Assembly: GCA_903889265.1 (NCBI GenBank)
Contig: CAISWS010000059.1
Location: forward strand, 1 to 45,181
DNA from: an uncultured Bacteroidota bacterium
GTDB lineage: Bacteria; Bacteroidota; Bacteroidia; Chitinophagales; LD1
DNA length: 45,181 nucleotides
Direction of reading: 5' to 3'
Of the stretch, positions 118 to 44,876 are shown in pieces. A model generated the notes under the pieces. The model worked only from the letters and a program-made list of their open reading frames with translations. It made no database searches and was not told where the DNA came from. The position numbers and the translations under genes were made by a program. Within the stretch, counting starts at the first letter, position 1, and the number at the start of each line of letters is the position of its first letter.

Positions 118-492
118 ATGAAAATGAATATCATATTTATAGCAATAGGGGGATTACTTGGCAGCGTTGCGCGTTATCTTTCGGTTGTTTACGTTACCAA
201 ACTAATACCCAGCCAGTTTCCGTTTGGTACTTTTGCGGTAAATATTTTAGGCTGCCTTATCATAGGTGTTATATACGGGCTTTCTTTACGTTACCTGTGG
301 TTAACCCCGGAGTGGCGGCTTTTTTTAGCTACCGGTTTTTGTGGCGGTTTTACCACATTTTCGGCATTTGCTTTGGAAAACATGCAGCTTATTGAGCAGG
401 CTAATTACGGAACGTTTGCATTATACAGTATTAGCAGTTTTACATTAGGATTGGCTGCAGTCTTCTTCGGAATGTTTCTTACCCGGCTATAA
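118..492 (+). CDS. crcB: Fluoride efflux channel CrcB/Fluc
   Basis: GG-x-G-x3-RY, FPFGTFAVNILGC and TGFCGGFTTFSAF motifs, 4 TM. Start is more likely ATG 118 or 124 than GTG 91. Confidence 0.95.
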   Translation: MKMNIIFIAIGGLLGSVARYLSVVYVTKLIPSQFPFGTFAVNILGCLIIGVIYGLSLRYLWLTPEWRLFLATGFCGGFTTFSAFALENMQLIEQANYGTFALYSISSFTLGLAAVFFGMFLTRL

Positions 493-524
493 TATTGCCC
501 CGTTTTATTTCGGTGTTTCCCCTC

Positions 525-728
525 TTAATGAACATAGATGGTCCAAATTCCACCGCTTTGGGTGCAACTGGTATCTAGTTGCGTAAGTACGGATTTGGGT
601 GTGTTTTTTTCACAGTATATATAGGTAGAAACACCAGCATATGCGCAGGTATAACACTTTTTGCACGAACTTATAGCCATAGTAACAAATGCAGCGGCTA
701 ATAAGCAGAATAAAAATTTTCTCATCAA
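525..728 (-). CDS. Small cysteine-rich lipoprotein, function unknown
   Basis: Signal peptide with lipobox ISSC, then CxxCxC and two further Cys. Co-oriented with the upstream barrel gene. Confidence 0.7.
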   Translation of the reverse strand: MMRKFLFCLLAAAFVTMAISSCKKCYTCAYAGVSTYIYCEKNTPKSVLTQLDTSCTQSGGIWTIYVH

Positions 729-1633: not shown

Positions 1634-4600
1634 TTATTTCTGCACTATCTTAACCAAACCACCGCCGTTATAGCTGTGGTACTCGCTGTTATACATGGCG
1701 TCTGCCATAACCGGCCCCATTACATAGGTGCCGGGCGAAACCGCACGCACCGCATAATAATATGTTTGTGGTTGAAGGCCGGCGTTTACAAACAGGTTAA
1801 TGCGGTCATCGCGAACGTCCAGTTGAGTGGGGCTGCTTTCGTTCTTTATCCAGTCCATACCAGGTATTTCTTTTGTCCGCGGATTTTCAATTTCAAAACC
1901 TGCTGGTAGCATATCGGTAATTACTATGTTATCAATATACCGGCTGTAACTGTTTTCTAGCGTTATCGCTACAATCACCAAATCGTTTTGGGCAAAGGTG
2001 GTGCCGGTTATTTGTCTGCCATAGCGGTCGTAAAAGCGCTTGCGCACACGTAGGTAGCTGTCTTCTTCTTTGAATGAGCCATCGGCGCTGATACCTTCGG
2101 CCTGCCAGAAATAATAGAGCCTGCCAATGCCGGAAGTCTTTATTTCTACGTTGGTGCCACCTAATTGTTTAGAGGTCAGTTTTAAGGTATTGCCATCGTT
2201 TTGGGCTACCTCTTTACCATTAACCAGCACGGATGCTTTAATGCTTGTTTTATTAGCCTGACGTGCTATTTTGCCCAAAGCAAGGAATGCAAAGGCCCTT
2301 TCCTGTGTGCTTAACCAGTAACTTGATTTAATTTCCTGGCTCAGGTGTTTGGCCATAACTCCAATCTGAGCATTTTGAGGGTCGGCTTCTATGATGGCGT
2401 TCAACGCCACACCTTCATCTCTTATCTCGCTGTAAAAAGAGCCACCGGTTTCGCGGCAGGATATTTCACCGCTAAAAGAGGTAGGTAGCATCTCTCTGAA
2501 TTTGGCCTGGTCGCCGGCAATAGCAAAGGCTGCGCTTAATAAATATTTACTATCCAAAGAAAGCATCTCTGTATTCTCTTTATAGTAATTCATGGTAGAT
2601 ACCTGGGGCTTGCCTGCTATGGCCAGCACATAAAGCGAGTAGGCAACTTCCTTAGGGGCTATCTGTCTTTTAAGGGTACCGTTATAATAATAAGTGATGG
2701 TCTCTTTGTTCTTCAGCTTATTAATCAGGTAGCTGTAGATATTATCCAGCAGGCTCTGGTCAACATCAAAACCGGCTTTTTTTGCCTCCTGTAAAAAGTT
2801 AGCCGCGTAAGCGGTAGCCCACCAGTTTTCGCTGCCTTCGTTATCCCAGAGGGTAATTGCGCCGCTATACAGTTGGCGCATTTTTATTTTACGGATGGCT
2901 TCCTGCACATTAAAATTGGCGCTAATTTTCATCGTCTTGTTCATATTCATCAACTCCGACAGGTCGCTGAAATACAATTGCGGGAATGCTGAACTAACAG
3001 TTTGCTCCGTACAGCCAAACGGATATTGCACCAGGTACCACATCTGGTCAGCTATTTCAACCGCAGGGTTTTTGCTGATGATTAGCTGGTAATCGGCACT
3101 GGAAGGAATGAACTTGTTTAAGTTGAAATCAATTTTCTGCGAAGCGCCGGCAAGAATAGGACCTGAGCCGGTTTGCTTTTGCAACGAAGCCGGTGGACGA
3201 ATGGTAATATCGGTTTCATCTTTAAACTTTTCACCCAACGCATTTACCTCCACAGTAACTTTCGCTACATCGATTTTAGGGTCAGCTACTATTTTAAACT
3301 GAACACGCTGCTCGCTTTTTGCATTTACAGAAACTGTTTGGCTGCTGTTTCCCACTACCTTTAGTGGCCCGCTCAACCTGATATTTGCCGTGGCACTTGT
3401 TGCATTCTTTGTAGTGTTTGAAATAGTTACCGGCATAATAACCGTATCCTTCGGCGACAGGAACCTTGGCAGGGCTGTGCTTAAAACAATAGGGTCAGCA
3501 ACAATCATTTCTGCATCCTTACTACCGAAACTTTGATTGCGGTAAGCTACTGCCATTAACCTTAACTGCCCGCTAAATTGTGGTATGTCAAACTCAAAAC
3601 TGGCTTCGCCGCTTCCATTGGCATCCATAATACCGCTCCAATAACTTATCAGTTTAACGCGCTTGTTTTGCATAGGGTTAGTGCGCCTGTTCATGGCCGC
3701 ATCGCCACCGGTGGATGAAAGCATACCTTTAATCTCAGGGAACAATAGCGGGTATAGGTCGAAAGAGTTTAAGCCCAGTGCACGGTTAGCATAAAAGAAG
3801 TTGTATGGGTCCGGTGTTTTGTAATTGGTTATTTGCAAAATGCCTTCATCTACTACTGCCAGTGTAACCTTGCTGTTAGGCTCGGCCTGTATCCTTACTT
3901 TCTGATGTGTCCGTGAGCGCACTTCTTTCTCGGCAAATATCTGCACATCCATATTGCGGCCTTTCTCGGTTACCGAAATGGATTTGTAACCATGGGCTAC
4001 CGTTAAAGGCATATCACTTTCCTGGTTGGGTTTTATTAATGTGGCCGAGACATAGGCGTTAGGCAAATACTCAGCACTTAAATTCAGGTTAACTGAAGCT
4101 GCTCTGTTTTCAACGTTTACGTATTGGTATTGAATTACTTTATTATTTTCAACTGTAACCAGCAGTTTGCCATTGAAAGGCGTTTTGAAAAGCACCTTGG
4201 CAGTTTCGCCGGCCATGTAAGTTTTCTTATCCAGCGAAATATCCACGTTGCCTTCGTTGTTTACTTCAAAGTTTCCACCACCGTAATTACCCCACCAGCC
4301 ATAGCTGTAAAACTCATTTCGCACGTACGAGTTTACGCCGGGTTTACCTACCCGTATTTCGTACTCGCCGGGTGTTTTAGGAGTAAAGGTGAATACGGTA
4401 TTTTCTCCGGTTACATTTACTTCCTGGTCAATAATGGTTTTGTCTTCGCGTTGAGATTCATACCGGAAATAAGAATCATTCCGGCTTAGCACGGTTCGGT
4501 AATCGTGTTTAATAACCTGCACGTGGGTACGCACGTTGTTTAAGGCCCTTTCATCTTTGTTCAATGCAATTAACGGGAACTTAATGGGCTGGTTAAGCGC

Positions 4601-17328: not shown

Positions 17329-17832
17329 CTATTGGCTTGACTGCATGCGATATTTAATGGTAGACCGGGCAACACCAAAGTTTTCGGGCACAATAACATG
17401 GGGTGCAACTGCTTTTATGGCTACCCCAATTAAAGCCAGATGATGGATGGCATGTTCAAGCGCATAAGCCAGTTCGCGTTTATAGCTGGTTTTATATTCT
17501 TCCGGGTCTGGTTGTTCACTGGAGTAAGAGGCAGAAATCACCAGGTTTTTTTCAGGCCTGTTTAAACCGGAAATAATTTCAGCCATACAGGCAAGCGCAG
17601 CTTCCTTATATTGCTCAATCTCCTGGTCGCGTTTGCGGTCATCATAATTGATTATACCTGCTTCATAACCTGTATTCAGGTAAACATAAATTTCGAGCAG
17701 GTGCCTGCAATGCTGTCCTATTCCCGACCCGTTTAGGATATCAGGTTGGGCTGTGTATTCCTCATTCTTCAATTGAACTAACACCTGATTTAGCTCCTCA
17801 AATGTTTCTGTTATTGCCTTTTCTAAATGCAT
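17329..17832 (-). CDS. DinB/YfiT family metal-binding protein
   Basis: GIGQHCRH, YDDRKRD and RELAYALEHAIHH (His triad). Confidence 0.85.
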   Translation of the reverse strand: MHLEKAITETFEELNQVLVQLKNEEYTAQPDILNGSGIGQHCRHLLEIYVYLNTGYEAGIINYDDRKRDQEIEQYKEAALACMAEIISGLNRPEKNLVISASYSSEQPDPEEYKTSYKRELAYALEHAIHHLALIGVAIKAVAPHVIVPENFGVARSTIKYRMQSSQ

Positions 17833-17858: not shown

Positions 17859-18257
17859 TTAGTTTGCAAAGTAGTTTTTCACCACCGGTATTTCCTTTCT
17901 TCTTAAAACCAGGATAAGTGCAGAGGAAATAAACACGGTTAAGGCTAAAATGAAAAGTTCGCCGTGGTCACCCATCACCTCAATACCCAATAGGGTAAGA
18001 TGGGAAAATACGGCGCCAACCATTACCCCGGCAGCTATTAAAGCGCCTGCCCATGCAAAGCGCGGGGTTAAAAGCAGTATGCCAGCAGTAAGTTCTACAA
18101 TGCCCGAACCAATGCGGCCATATGGTTCGGCACCCAGTTTTGAAAAAATATAAACTGATTCAGGCTGGGCGCTGAATTTAAAATAAAGCGTTTGCAGTAA
18201 AATTACCGAGGCCACAATTTGCAGGGCCCACACCAGGTACGTTTGCAGTTTTGACAT
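17859..18257 (-). CDS. DoxX family membrane protein
   Basis: LLQTLYFKF, EPYGRIGSGIVE, GAVFSH; 4 TM. Confidence 0.85.
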   Translation of the reverse strand: MSKLQTYLVWALQIVASVILLQTLYFKFSAQPESVYIFSKLGAEPYGRIGSGIVELTAGILLLTPRFAWAGALIAAGVMVGAVFSHLTLLGIEVMGDHGELFILALTVFISSALILVLRRKEIPVVKNYFAN

Positions 18258-18287
18258 AAATTTGGGTTTTGGTTAAAAGTAAGTAAT

Positions 18288-18809
18288 TTATTTATTGGTT
18301 ATTTTCTTCCAGTTGGTGTCGGCCAGCGGCAAATATCCTTTTTCGTTTTTGTTCCAGCTGTTTAAGGTGTTATTAAAAAACTTATTGTAAAACAGCAAAA
18401 GCTTACCATTAACAATTTTATATGTCTGGGGGTCTATTTCAACCTTTTCGCCTGATGTTGCCATGGCATAAGCACACCAGCCGCCGTATTGTGGTTGGTA
18501 CTTTGCAGGCTCTTTAATAAATAATTGCCGGTTGGCATCAGTTGCAAAATAATAGGTAGCGCCATTTTGTGTAAATGAAATCGTATTCTTTCCCTGGGTG
18601 GCTTTGCCCAAGGTAAAATAGGCAACTGGGTCATAACCCGAAATGGCTATTCCTTTTTCAAGGTTCAGCGGCTCGCCCGTTGCAGTTGCCATTTGGGCCT
18701 TCATGCTACTACTGAACGCAGTGAGCAGTAAAATGATAGTTGCAACCTTGTAAGGAAGTAACATGTAGTTACGTCTACCTGAATGTTGAGCGTTTGTGCT
18801 TGTTTTCAT
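18288..18809 (-). CDS. YHS domain-containing (seleno)protein family, Cys form
   Basis: AISGYDPVAYF, YYFA, PQYGGWCAYAM, IDP...KLLLFY; signal peptide. Alternative start at 18764. Confidence 0.88.
   Translation of the reverse strand: MKTSTNAQHSGRRNYMLLPYKVATIILLLTAFSSSMKAQMATATGEPLNLEKGIAISGYDPVAYFTLGKATQGKNTISFTQNGATYYFATDANRQLFIKEPAKYQPQYGGWCAYAMATSGEKVEIDPQTYKIVNGKLLLFYNKFFNNTLNSWNKNEKGYLPLADTNWKKITNK
18749..18775 (+). promoter_or_regulatory. Putative ECF sigma promoter facing DUF1223
   Basis: TGTAAGGAAG-N13-CGTC, the same motif as at 18850-18875 and 44235-44260. Confidence 0.55.
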
Positions 18810-18849
18810 AAGTATTTATAAAGTGTTTGTTATACGGTTCAATAGGTAA

Positions 18850-18875
18850 GACGAAGGACTGTTTATTTCCTTACA
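18850..18875 (-). promoter_or_regulatory. Putative ECF sigma promoter for YHS-DoxX-DinB operon
   Basis: Minus strand TGTAAGGAAA-N12-CGTC, about 40 nt upstream of the ATG; identical elements and spacing upstream of msrB. Confidence 0.7.
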
Positions 18876-18888
18876 AAATAATATTTCA

Positions 18889-19629
18889 ATGTATAAAATA
18901 GCGCTTGTTATAATGATTTTACTGGGTTTAACCAGTATACGGAAGCCGAATGAGGGCTTTAAACCAGTTGCAGTTATTGAACTGTTTACATCTGAGGGGT
19001 GCAGCAGTTGCCCGCCGGCGGATAAGCTACTGGCTAAAACTTTAACCTCCTGGCAAGCCGGGCAGGCTAATGTTTTTGCCCTTGCGTTTCATGTAGATTA
19101 CTGGAACAGGCTGGGTTGGAGAGACTCCTTTAGCACCAGTCAGTTCTCAGCGCGGCAAGGCTTGTACGTTTCTGAAATGCACTTAAATGGAGCTTACACG
19201 CCGCAAATGATAGTAAACGGTACTACCGAATTTGTAGGCTCCGATAAAAGTGCGTTGGACAATGCTGTTTTGAAAGCGCTGAATACGAAACAGCAGGCGG
19301 AGTTTATAAACTTAACGGCCTCCTCAAATGGTAACAGCCTGGTTGTAAATTACGGGCTTAACGGTAGTTTTAATGGTTGCCAGGTGCATTTTGCATTGGT
19401 AACACTACATGCAGTTACCTCGGTAAAAAGTGGCGAAAACGGTGGGCATGTGTTAGAGCATACCAATGTTGTAAGGGAATTGCTTTCATATCCCGCTGCA
19501 TCTTCGGGTAAGGCTGTTTTTAATAATTGCAGGGCTTATGATTTGCGCAATACAGGGGTTGTTGCCTTTGTGCAGCAGCAAAACGGATTGCACATTATAG
19601 CAGGTGCTATGGCCCGGCCTGGTAATTGA
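18889..19629 (+). CDS. DUF1223 family thioredoxin-like secreted protein
   Basis: ELFTSEGCSSCPPAD, FHVDYWNRLGWRD, YTPQMIVNG, GENGG, HTNVVR. Confidence 0.92.
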   Translation: MYKIALVIMILLGLTSIRKPNEGFKPVAVIELFTSEGCSSCPPADKLLAKTLTSWQAGQANVFALAFHVDYWNRLGWRDSFSTSQFSARQGLYVSEMHLNGAYTPQMIVNGTTEFVGSDKSALDNAVLKALNTKQQAEFINLTASSNGNSLVVNYGLNGSFNGCQVHFALVTLHAVTSVKSGENGGHVLEHTNVVRELLSYPAASSGKAVFNNCRAYDLRNTGVVAFVQQQNGLHIIAGAMARPGN

Positions 19630-43682: not shown

Positions 43683-44213
43683 TTACAGGCTATCCTTTTT
43701 AAAATTAAGCGAAACAGAATTTACACAATACCTTTCGCCCGTAGCTGTCGGTCCATCATCAAACAAATGGCCCAGGTGCGAACCACACTTTGCACAAACT
43801 ATTTCGGTTCTTACCATACCATGGCTGGTATCAATATGCGTTTTTATTTTACCTCCGGCAATTTCCTTATCAAAACTTGGCCATCCGCAGCTCGATTCAA
43901 ACTTCATATCCGAAGTAAATAATTCGTTACCGCAGGCAGCACAAACGTAAACACCCTTTTCTTTATTCAGGTAATACTTACCGGTAAAAGGGGCTTCCGT
44001 TCCTTTTTCGCGCAATACGCGGTATTGCTCAGGGCTTAACAGGTTTTTCCATTCTTCATTTGATTTTACAATCGGGGTGGTGTCTTTTTTATCGGTGCTC
44101 ATAGTATTGCTTTTAGGGTTTTGTGTTTCGGTTGCTAAAGGTAAAGGGGTTTTATTACTACATGATGAAAATGCAAGCAGGGAAAATAAGAAAGCGAATG
44201 CGGTGGTTTTCAT
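43683..44213 (-). CDS. msrB: Peptide-methionine (R)-S-oxide reductase, exported lipoprotein
   Basis: GTEAPF, zinc CAAC and CAKC, CGWPSF, HLGHLFDDGP, RYCVNS; lipobox FSSC. Confidence 0.96.
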   Translation of the reverse strand: MKTTAFAFLFSLLAFSSCSNKTPLPLATETQNPKSNTMSTDKKDTTPIVKSNEEWKNLLSPEQYRVLREKGTEAPFTGKYYLNKEKGVYVCAACGNELFTSDMKFESSCGWPSFDKEIAGGKIKTHIDTSHGMVRTEIVCAKCGSHLGHLFDDGPTATGERYCVNSVSLNFKKDSL

Positions 44214-44234
44214 AAAGCTGATTTTATACTGTTT

Positions 44235-44260
44235 GACGGGCCGTTATTGTTTTCCTTACA
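44235..44260 (-). promoter_or_regulatory. Putative ECF sigma promoter for msrB
   Basis: Minus strand TGTAAGGAAA-N12-CGTC, 21 nt upstream of the ATG. Confidence 0.7.
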
Positions 44261-44300
44261 TACTTAATACCATTAACAGATTTTTATTTACATTGTTTTT

Positions 44301-44876
44301 ATGTTACAGAAAATTGCCGGGTTCTTTTGGCGTATTGCTGGTTTTAAAGCCTTTATAGGGGCACTTATTATTTACCTGGTTTTCGCGGCATATGTTATGC
44401 CCAAAGGGCCGCAGATGATTCAGCAAATAAGCGGAAAAAAAGTGGAAATACTCGACCTTCAGTTTACCTATACACCCGAACGGGCAAGGGCTATCTTAGG
44501 GGAATATGGTGTTTTGGCAAGGTGGGAAGCCGCTTCGTTCGAATTGTGGGCCGATACCTTATATCCCCTGGCTTATACCTTTTTGTTTTTGATTATTATG
44601 GGCTGGCTCTTTAAATCATTATCGGTTTACGGCGTAAGAATCCGATATATTCATTTGCTGCCTTTTTTGGTGTTGATTGCTGATTACTGCGAAAACGCCT
44701 GCATTATAACGATGTTAAAGAGCTATCCTGATTTTTCAGATAATCTGGCTCTCGCATCCTCATTTTTTACATCTTTAAAATGGAGCTTGCTGGCGCTAAT
44801 TACTTTTATTATCGGCGCGGGCATCTGGCTACTTACATTTTACAAGATGACGAGGGGAAAAGTCGCTGCCAAATAA
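44301..44876 (+). CDS. Hypothetical membrane protein
   Basis: LDLQFTY, DTLYPLAY, ADYCEN and FTSLKW motifs in a 4-TM protein. Confidence 0.75.
   Translation: MLQKIAGFFWRIAGFKAFIGALIIYLVFAAYVMPKGPQMIQQISGKKVEILDLQFTYTPERARAILGEYGVLARWEAASFELWADTLYPLAYTFLFLIIMGWLFKSLSVYGVRIRYIHLLPFLVLIADYCENACIITMLKSYPDFSDNLALASSFFTSLKWSLLALITFIIGAGIWLLTFYKMTRGKVAAK

Follow-up and report, generated by a model that had tools for sequence, protein, structure and literature searches.

The 45,181-nucleotide stretch of DNA analysed here (the window) is contig C59 of assembly G000, the genome of an uncultured Bacteroidota bacterium (5,111,066 bases in 527 contigs, 99.5% complete), and it raises the question of why three copies of one bipartite element, TGTAAGGAAR-N12/13-CGTC, should lie within it. 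A preliminary description of the window took the copies for promoters of a sigma factor with extracytoplasmic function (ECF) that bring a YHS-DoxX-DinB operon, a DUF1223 gene and a distant methionine sulfoxide reductase gene (msrB) under common control. The evidence assembled below indicates that the element is probably a promoter recognised by an ECF sigma factor of group ECF293, the kind represented by Neisseria sigmaE/MseR, and that its likely regulators are a sigma factor and an anti-sigma factor encoded side by side on another contig, C492.

The three copies are not expected by chance. A pattern search of the window returned them at the positions and with the bases first reported, at 18749-18775 on the plus strand and at 18850-18875 and 44235-44260 on the minus strand, and dinucleotide-preserving shuffles of the window (n = 100) gave a mean of 0.00 matches, with 0/100 shuffles reaching three or more. 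These copies are also the only matches of the strict pattern in the whole genome. Counted over both strands of the genome, the 9-mer TGTAAGGAA by itself is found 47 times, against about 54 occurrences by a hand estimate from base composition, and alone is thus at chance level; the unusual part is the 9-mer paired with CGTC at fixed spacing, rather than the 9-mer itself. In its general form the motif consists of a −35 block TGTAAGG(A/T)(A/T), 15 nt between GTAAGG and the −10 block, and a −10 block CG(T/A)C followed by A-rich bases. Each copy had been described as oriented toward a gene, and the distances bear this out: the YHS-side copy (18875-18850) lies 40 nt ahead of the ATG at 18809, the msrB copy (44260-44235) lies 21 nt ahead of the ATG at 44213, and the plus-strand copy ends 113 nt ahead of the DUF1223 ATG at 18889. 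The plus-strand copy is, however, not intergenic, being placed inside the long YHS open reading frame (ORF), where it overlaps an alternative start codon at 18764.

Conservation upstream of msrB is the first line of evidence for promoter function. The msrB loci of 24 same-genus genomes and of the window's own genome provided 25 upstream regions, which were searched for GTAAGG (with at most one change), 15 nt, and CG[TA][CT]. The element is present in 17/25 genomes, in uniform orientation and near the start codon, and the reverse strand of the same regions has 0/25 matches (background 0.012 per 360 nt); the remainder of the msrB loci contains 5 matches in 147,298 nt. The spacers of different genomes have their length in common but not their sequence. 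A fixed −35 and −10 separated by a fixed-length, unconserved spacer, kept on one strand only, upholds the earlier proposal of a bipartite promoter of ECF type. With a position weight matrix (PWM) built from the 17 msrB sites, the window's own site among them, the element was also found at a score of at least 13 upstream of msrA in 16/23 same-genus genomes, and its status there agrees with that at msrB in 23/23. Transcription of msrB is predicted to start near 44225-44228. About 20 nt upstream of the msrB −35, at 44261-44300, lies a further conserved block, AAAAATCTGTTAA, shared with relatives (L052, L054, L058, L059, L062, L069, L072), which may be part of the divergent gene's promoter or an UP-like element; that divergent gene (44301-44876) encodes a 191-aa membrane protein with no Pfam match.

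The element could alternatively be an operator for a DNA-binding regulator, such as a one-component redox sensor, its two conserved blocks of fixed separation being half-sites. This reading is highly improbable, as the blocks are neither palindromic nor repeated, their orientation to the gene is constant (0/25 matches on the reverse strand), and the −10 block lies about 14-50 nt ahead of the start codon in the G000 targets. Moreover, the sequence equals a sigmaE promoter reported with experimental support (PMC2893595), and the element both co-occurs with and is linked to a sigma/anti-sigma pair.

Placement in the genome as a whole points the same way. In G000 the PWM gives its three highest scores to sites placed 14-50 nt ahead of msr genes, namely msrA (C169; 22.7), the msrB of the window (21.0) and a second msrB (C431; 21.0), the families being confirmed by Pfam PMSR and SelR. 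Five matches score at least 19, and three shuffles gave 0, 1 and 1 such matches. A search of G000 for exactly GT[AC]AGG-N15-CG[AT]C found 12 matches, of which 9 are not within long ORFs; a same-strand gene lies downstream of six, in five cases within about 55 nt. Among the 29 matches of GTAAGG-N15-CGWC in 41 genomes, 15 precede msr genes and two fall within the 3′-terminal part of an ECF sigma gene (G027, G018), where they directly precede the gene of a small HxxxCxxC protein. The form with one more base (GTAAGG-N16-CGWC) has 9 matches in the 41 genomes and 0 at msr genes. A scan of the genome and its relatives had been proposed in the preliminary description, and its matches do lie ahead of msrA and msrB, of a DUF547 gene, of thioredoxin-like genes and of an ECF/anti-sigma pair.

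The sigma factor was expected to be encoded outside the window, and indeed none of the 20 Sigma70_r2 matches in G000 is on C59. The most suitable candidate is found on C492, where a gene for a 195-aa ECF sigma is followed by an 88-aa ORF that overlaps the sigma stop codon by 4 nt. The sigma factor has Pfam matches to Sigma70_r2 (residues 13-78) and Sigma70_r4_2 (residues 133-184) with about 55 aa between them, an extended linker, and its sigma4 cysteines C137, C163 and C187 are invariant in 18/18 orthologues. In the 88-aa protein, C11, H37, C41 and C44 are the only invariant columns of an alignment of 14 sequences, and no hydrophobic helix was seen by eye. The anti-sigma orthologues in G010, G012, G013 and G024 (L152-L154, L156) read Hx4CxxC instead, so that the His stands one residue further from the first Cys. 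A Nitrosomonas homologue of the C492 sigma (37% identity) has the same zinc-associated anti-sigma (ZAS) gene at position +1.

According to the supplement of the ECF classification (PMC7826278), ECF293 sigmas have an extended linker between sigma2 and sigma4 and three cysteines in sigma4, and a soluble zinc-finger anti-sigma is encoded at +1; the group holds the neisserial factors, and 29.65% of its members are from Bacteroidetes. By these traits, and with NCBIfam TIGR02943 as a proxy (178.9 versus a cut-off of 162.2), the C492 sigma likely belongs to ECF293. The preliminary description had cited ECF16-type sigma factors as regulators of msr genes, but an ECF16 assignment of the sigma factor is not sustained. 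PF06532 (DUF1109/NrsF) has 0 matches in G000, a control search having found NrsF in Caulobacter; the lack of an NrsF-type anti-sigma excludes ECF16, and the classification supplement places Neisseria Ecf/RpoE in ECF293.

Two further observations associate the C492 pair with its presumed partners. In the 25 genomes, the msrB motif and a C492-type sigma occur together in 15, the motif alone in 2, the sigma alone in 2 and neither in 6 (Fisher p = 0.0036, a value overstated because the genomes are kin). A predicted complex of the sigma and the anti-sigma scores 0.74, versus 0.00 for the best of three controls, a mark that is reached by 116/157 solved complexes and by 2/215 mismatched pairs; the runs share at least 93% of their contacts, and the predicted local distance difference test (pLDDT) of the partner is at least 83. 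Sigma/anti-sigma complexes have already been solved, so that the model shows likeness only, and to that extent it supports binding between the two proteins.

The motif could instead be an ECF promoter read by another sigma factor of the genome, either the orphan ECF on C330 or the ECF on C240, an explanation considered improbable. Among the 20 sigma genes only these two have an upstream PWM match above 14 (16.3 for C330 and 14.5 for C240), and autoregulation is frequent among ECFs. The C330 site (3144-3173, minus strand; L008) reads TGTCAGGAAA-N12-CGTCTAAG, lies 231 nt upstream of a 176-aa sigma gene that adjoins maf and has no anti-sigma beside it, and fits the neisserial GTMAG form (PMC2893595); the C240 match is weaker and lies just before a possible TTG start of an operon of ECF, anti-sigma and CpxP-like genes. 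Both sites, however, are kept only in the closest relative, G023, and no other of 23 C330-type and 16 C240-type loci scores above 8. Nor does either sigma track the msrB motif (14/3/6/2 for C330 and 11/6/3/5 for C240, as both/motif only/sigma only/neither), and neither has a ZAS partner or linked msr or YHS genes. The C330 site may be the mark of an ECF cascade or of a small RNA. A third candidate, the ECF sigma and membrane anti-sigma on C169 (968-1985, minus strand), 1.7 kb from msrA, was rejected, with a best upstream score of 2.7 and no ZAS motif; the pair is followed by divergent DUF6249 and phosphatase/sulfatase-like genes.

Gene linkage provides further support for the C492 type of sigma as the regulator. 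It was surveyed in 80 loci around related sigma genes in public genomes of Bacteroidota, Verrucomicrobiota, Planctomycetota, Ignavibacteriae, Nitrosomonas and others. In Bacteroidota and Verrucomicrobiota genomes, YHS-DoxX-DinB is found directly downstream of the sigma/anti-sigma pair and behind the same motif. One strand of G027, a member of another family, carries in succession genes for the sigma, the anti-sigma, DM13, a 320-aa protein, YHS, DoxX and DinB. By tblastn, YHS was found at 9 of the 80 loci, DoxX at 6 (45-61% identity for the homologues beside related sigma genes), DinB at 7, MsrB at 5 and DUF1223 at 0. PWM matches of at least 14 number 76 in the 0.83 Mb of sigma loci, compared with 35 in the 5.11-Mb genome G000; 33 of the 76 are internal sites followed by a ZAS gene, 33 have another ORF within 150 nt and 10 have no ORF. 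Pfam assigns the ORFs behind the motif to SelR/PMSR (2), YHS (3), DoxX (2), DinB_2 (1), a DsbD-thioredoxin fusion (1), pyridine-nucleotide disulphide oxidoreductases (2), DUF547 (1), the sigma gene itself (2) and others, and similarity adds two more YHS ORFs (53% identity to the window protein).

In the window, the promoter of the YHS-DoxX-DinB operon would consist of the −35 TGTAAGGAAA (18875-18866), a 12-nt spacer and the −10 CGTC (18853-18850), with a predicted transcription start near 18839-18843. YHS orthologues elsewhere carry the same element, with PWM scores of 22.7 (L198), 22.2 (L200), 15.6 (L172), 16.8 (L179) and 16.4 (L222), and these sites together with the linkage to sigma genes make the window's YHS promoter a conserved feature of the system. 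YHS and DUF1223 were not found in the 24 same-genus genomes. The Pfam YHS match of the first protein of the operon is weak. Its true start is probably the ATG at 18764, the ORF from 18809 being too long, since homology to the orthologues of G027 and L198 begins at residue 19-20 and the product of the later start opens with MLLPYKV, a clean signal-peptide-like N-terminus. The housekeeping promoter consensus is TAnnTTTG. An exact box of this kind is lacking within 200 nt upstream of six predicted targets, an absence that says little, since 194/2000 random windows contain one.

The motif also occurs within the coding sequence of the sigma genes themselves. Codon usage at this embedded site was compared in 70 distinct sigma genes (71/98 loci were parsable), in which the motif coincides with the codons for C-K/Q-E...P/S/T-S/T-N of region 4.2. 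At the site, the Cys codon is TGT in 57/70 genes, compared with 94/197 elsewhere in the same genes (Fisher p 6e-7), and Lys is encoded by AAG in 26/39, compared with 344/1162 elsewhere (Fisher p 3e-6); where the second position is Gln the codon is CAG in 14/14. The third base of the eighth codon is G in 49/70, compared with 570/2630 comparable four-fold codons elsewhere (Fisher p 3e-17). These p-values are overstated because the genes are related. The direction of the bias fits selection on the DNA for GT(A/C)AGG and CG(T/A)C, and the embedded site, as an internal promoter, would drive the anti-sigma gene and so create a negative feedback. A broader proposal, for which the case falls somewhat short of balanced, is that in at least five phyla ECF293-type sigmas carry their own promoter at synonymous positions in the region 4.2 codons, 40-130 nt before the anti-sigma gene, such that the sigma would transcribe its inhibitor, often with YHS-DoxX-DinB or msr genes behind it, and not itself; YHS-DoxX-DinB would then be a conserved, undescribed module of envelope redox defence.

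Several observations weigh against the assignment of the element to the C492 sigma. The training sites of the PWM were chosen by the motif expression, which is partly circular. At scores of at least 15, G000 has 22 matches compared with 24, 28 and 36 in shuffles, not above chance, and the 29 matches of the exact pattern in 41 genomes compare with 50 in a reversed control. Because the numbers are at chance except at the top, the case rests on the placement of matches, and the regulon would be small. The motif is present without a sigma (at E 1e-25) in G003, which is 79% complete, and in G014, which is 100% complete, and two genomes with a divergent sigma (45-50% identity) are without the msrB motif. 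The region upstream of the C492 sigma gene scores −0.8 at best, giving no signal of autoregulation, and the internal copy in the C492 gene is weak (GTAAAG, score 15.5). The 88-aa anti-sigma has no Pfam match and reaches 45.7 bits with the NCBIfam antisigmaE model NF052368, below its cut-off of 50. Transcript data are of little help to the YHS promoter. Four permafrost metatranscriptome runs contain 6-14% of sampled words, and RNA contigs at 100% identity cover 18083-18312, 18493-18822, 18537-18758 and 18645-18810, parts of DoxX and YHS; such contigs reveal neither 5′ ends nor strand, and libraries of this kind may contain DNA. The furthest contig ends at 18822, which is 13 nt past the ATG at 18809 and short of the predicted start at about 18840, a weak hint only, and the absence of contig cover on DUF1223 carries no meaning.

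The plus-strand copy requires separate treatment. An alignment of the two facing copies spans about 34 nt and takes in parts of the spacer as well as bases after CGTC, with a score of 34, compared with a mean of 15.3, a standard deviation of 3.2 and a maximum of 31 in shuffles (n = 2000); as the alignment extends beyond the motif, they look like an inverted duplicate. A small mobile element (a miniature inverted-repeat transposable element, with the copies as its terminal repeats) was considered and rejected, since the 166-bp region that holds the facing copies has no further copy in the genome and the sites at msrB and msrA occupy positions where the promoter is conserved. It is possible, and on present evidence rather doubtful, that the plus-strand copy is a working second promoter that places DUF1223 in the regulon. 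The copy has all 14 defined positions, the neisserial consensus permits a spacer of 12-13 nt (PMC2893595), and DUF1223 is a secreted CxxC protein that would suit a redox regulon and has no TAnnTTTG box in the 200 nt upstream. A CxxC Omp28-like protein, moreover, is motif-bearing in G002 and lies behind the sigma/anti-sigma pair in G018. Against this, 17/17 msrB and 16/16 msrA sites have the shorter spacing, the only one that the msrB expression permitted, and the plus-strand copy lacks the A-rich bases after CGTC. It reaches a PWM score of 16.3 only with the longer spacer, and 23 genome matches of at least 15 at that spacing put this at background. Its position in the YHS start region would yield face-to-face overlapping transcripts, and DUF1223 is present at 0/80 related sigma loci. 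The similarity between DUF1223 and the Omp28-like protein (E 0.084) is confined to the CxxC stretch, and a relation is not demonstrable. DUF1223 homologues in G029 and G039 lack the motif, but these genomes also lack the sigma, so that the two cases are uninformative. Of the single regulon first claimed, the msrB and YHS-DoxX-DinB parts are therefore retained and DUF1223, with its background score and its absence from the sigma loci, may be a member with an unproven link.

Features of the window that bear on the proposed regulon
Feature	Position	Strand	Basis
DinB-family protein, third gene of the operon	17329..17832	-	Pfam DinB 29.7 bits, cut-off 23
DoxX-like membrane protein, second gene of the operon	17859..18257	-	Pfam DoxX_2 E 1.2e-05, just under cut-off
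Secreted protein of the YHS-domain (seleno)protein family	18288..18809	-	NCBIfam NF041384 131.1 bits, cut-off 70
Inverted near-duplicate of the YHS promoter, facing DUF1223	18749..18779	+	strict match; spacer one base longer
Candidate promoter of the YHS-DoxX-DinB operon	18846..18875	-	strict match; PWM score 17.6
DUF1223 protein with CxxC and signal peptide	18889..19629	+	Pfam DUF1223 E 1.5e-53
msrB, lipoprotein-like methionine-R-sulfoxide reductase	43683..44213	-	Pfam SelR E 7e-53
Candidate msrB promoter	44231..44260	-	TGTAAGGAAA, 12-nt spacer, CGTCAAAC; strict match; PWM 21.0

Other genes of G000 and its relatives were also found behind the motif. On C267, a strict TGTAAGG-N15-CGTC (587-616, minus strand) lies about 30 nt before an ORF (343-558, minus strand) for a 71-aa secreted Cys/His-rich protein with no Pfam or NCBIfam match, which is probably a target, as predicted from the site. 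In L129 (G014) and L142 (G004) the motif lies 5-14 nt before a gene that encodes a lipoprotein (about 167 aa); in G014 this protein has a match to Pfam Cytochrome_P460 and in G004 it looks homologous by eye, and to judge from these sites the lipoprotein is likely a further regulon member in relatives. The exact motif is also found 58-79 nt before a long ORF that by eye resembles aldehyde/pyrroline-5-carboxylate dehydrogenase in L122 (G024) and L138 (G013), and before an ORF that by eye is thiolase-like in L137 (G004).

If the element is read by the C492 sigma, a scheme of regulation can be proposed, in which promoter activity, the signal and the pairing of sigma with promoter are all predictions. 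At rest, sigma2 and sigma4 would both be clamped by the anti-sigma. By analogy with RsrA, the sigma would be released once the zinc-thiolate site of the anti-sigma is oxidised, and RNA polymerase with the freed sigma would start transcription a few bases after the −10 block of msrB and YHS-DoxX-DinB in the window, msrA on C169 and the second msrB on C431. The copy of the motif in the region 4.2 codons would at the same time drive the anti-sigma gene and so shut off the response.

Bacteroidota genomes carry about 22 ECFs each, few of which are named as studied in the classification (PMC7826278), and the scheme offers a concrete, testable regulon for one of them. The promoter of the neisserial sigmaE/MseR system also appears to have been kept from Betaproteobacteria through to Bacteroidota and Verrucomicrobiota. 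The YHS selenoprotein-like, DoxX and DinB proteins would be tied to a response to methionine oxidation, which narrows their possible functions, and the embedded promoter, if true, would be an example of a regulatory signal written over the codons for the domain that itself recognises that signal.

Among known systems, SigF of Caulobacter controls msr genes. The SigF-NrsF system (ECF16) is similarly an ECF system of oxidative and metal stress, and DoxX is conserved together with DUF692 in the ECF16 context (PMC7826278 supplement). It differs in its six-helix membrane anti-sigma (DUF1109/NrsF), a type with no member in G000. In Streptomyces coelicolor the SigR regulon includes msr and thioredoxin genes, and RsrA, the anti-sigma of SigR, is a thiol-oxidation switch. 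The SigR promoter consensus, GGAAT-N18-GTT, is unlike the motif described here, and the pair belongs to a different group, ECF12. RsrA resembles the 88-aa anti-sigma as a soluble ZAS with the ligands C11, H37, C41 and C44 (numbering of PMC2893595); a profile of the anti-sigma found no RsrA or ChrR match among PDB sequences at E up to 10. Within Bacteroidota, CHU_3097 of Cytophaga hutchinsonii (ECF293s18) is the only ECF293 member listed as studied in the PMC7826278 supplement, and has a soluble anti-sigma at +1. It differs in being reported in cellulose utilisation, with no msr link or promoter motif given in that supplement.

The closest system is that of sigmaE (RpoE/Ecf) and MseR in Neisseria meningitidis and N. 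gonorrhoeae (ECF293; PMC2893595, PMC3240639, PMC7826278). The motif had been thought undescribed for Bacteroidota, and no report of it in that phylum, nor of a link between YHS or DoxX and a sigma factor, was found by a literature search that missed many subscription papers; the motif itself, however, is the published neisserial sigmaE consensus. Nor does the literature found describe YHS-DoxX-DinB as a conserved target or a promoter embedded in a sigma coding sequence. The ECF classification supplement (PMC7826278) reports no conserved promoter motif for ECF293, presumably because the search was made upstream of the ECF operon. Apart from the phylum, the system described here differs from the neisserial one in having msrA and msrB as separate genes, each with its own site, and in having DoxX in a YHS-DoxX-DinB cassette outside the sigma operon. 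Autoregulation of the neisserial operon proceeds from a promoter ahead of NMB2140, and PMC2893595, as far as it was available, describes no site embedded in the sigma coding sequence, whereas the C492 sigma gene has no upstream motif and contains an embedded one. In Neisseria, oxidants left expression unchanged, and oxidative release from MseR was not demonstrated there. The similarities are nonetheless extensive. Hopman et al. (PMC2893595) gave the neisserial sigmaE consensus as a −35 GTMAGBWTT, 12-13 nt and a −10 CGTCTAAH, with a start 6 nt after the −10, which matches TGTAAGG(A/T)(A/T)A, 12 nt and CG(T/A)C-nAA here. The neisserial regulon comprises msrA/msrB and the operon NMB2140-2145, whose first gene is DoxX-like and whose last encodes MseR (PMC2893595); both regulons are thus small, with methionine sulfoxide reductase as the core target and a DoxX-like gene included. 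MseR is a small cytoplasmic ZAS in which Cys4, His30, Cys34 and Cys37 match Cys11, His37, Cys41 and Cys44 of RsrA (PMC2893595), and the C492 anti-sigma is likewise a small soluble ZAS with an N-terminal Cys and HxxxCxxC at the same spacing. With the long linker and three sigma4 cysteines of its sigma factor, the system is, as judged from its sequences, a Bacteroidota member of the known sigmaE/MseR (ECF293) kind.

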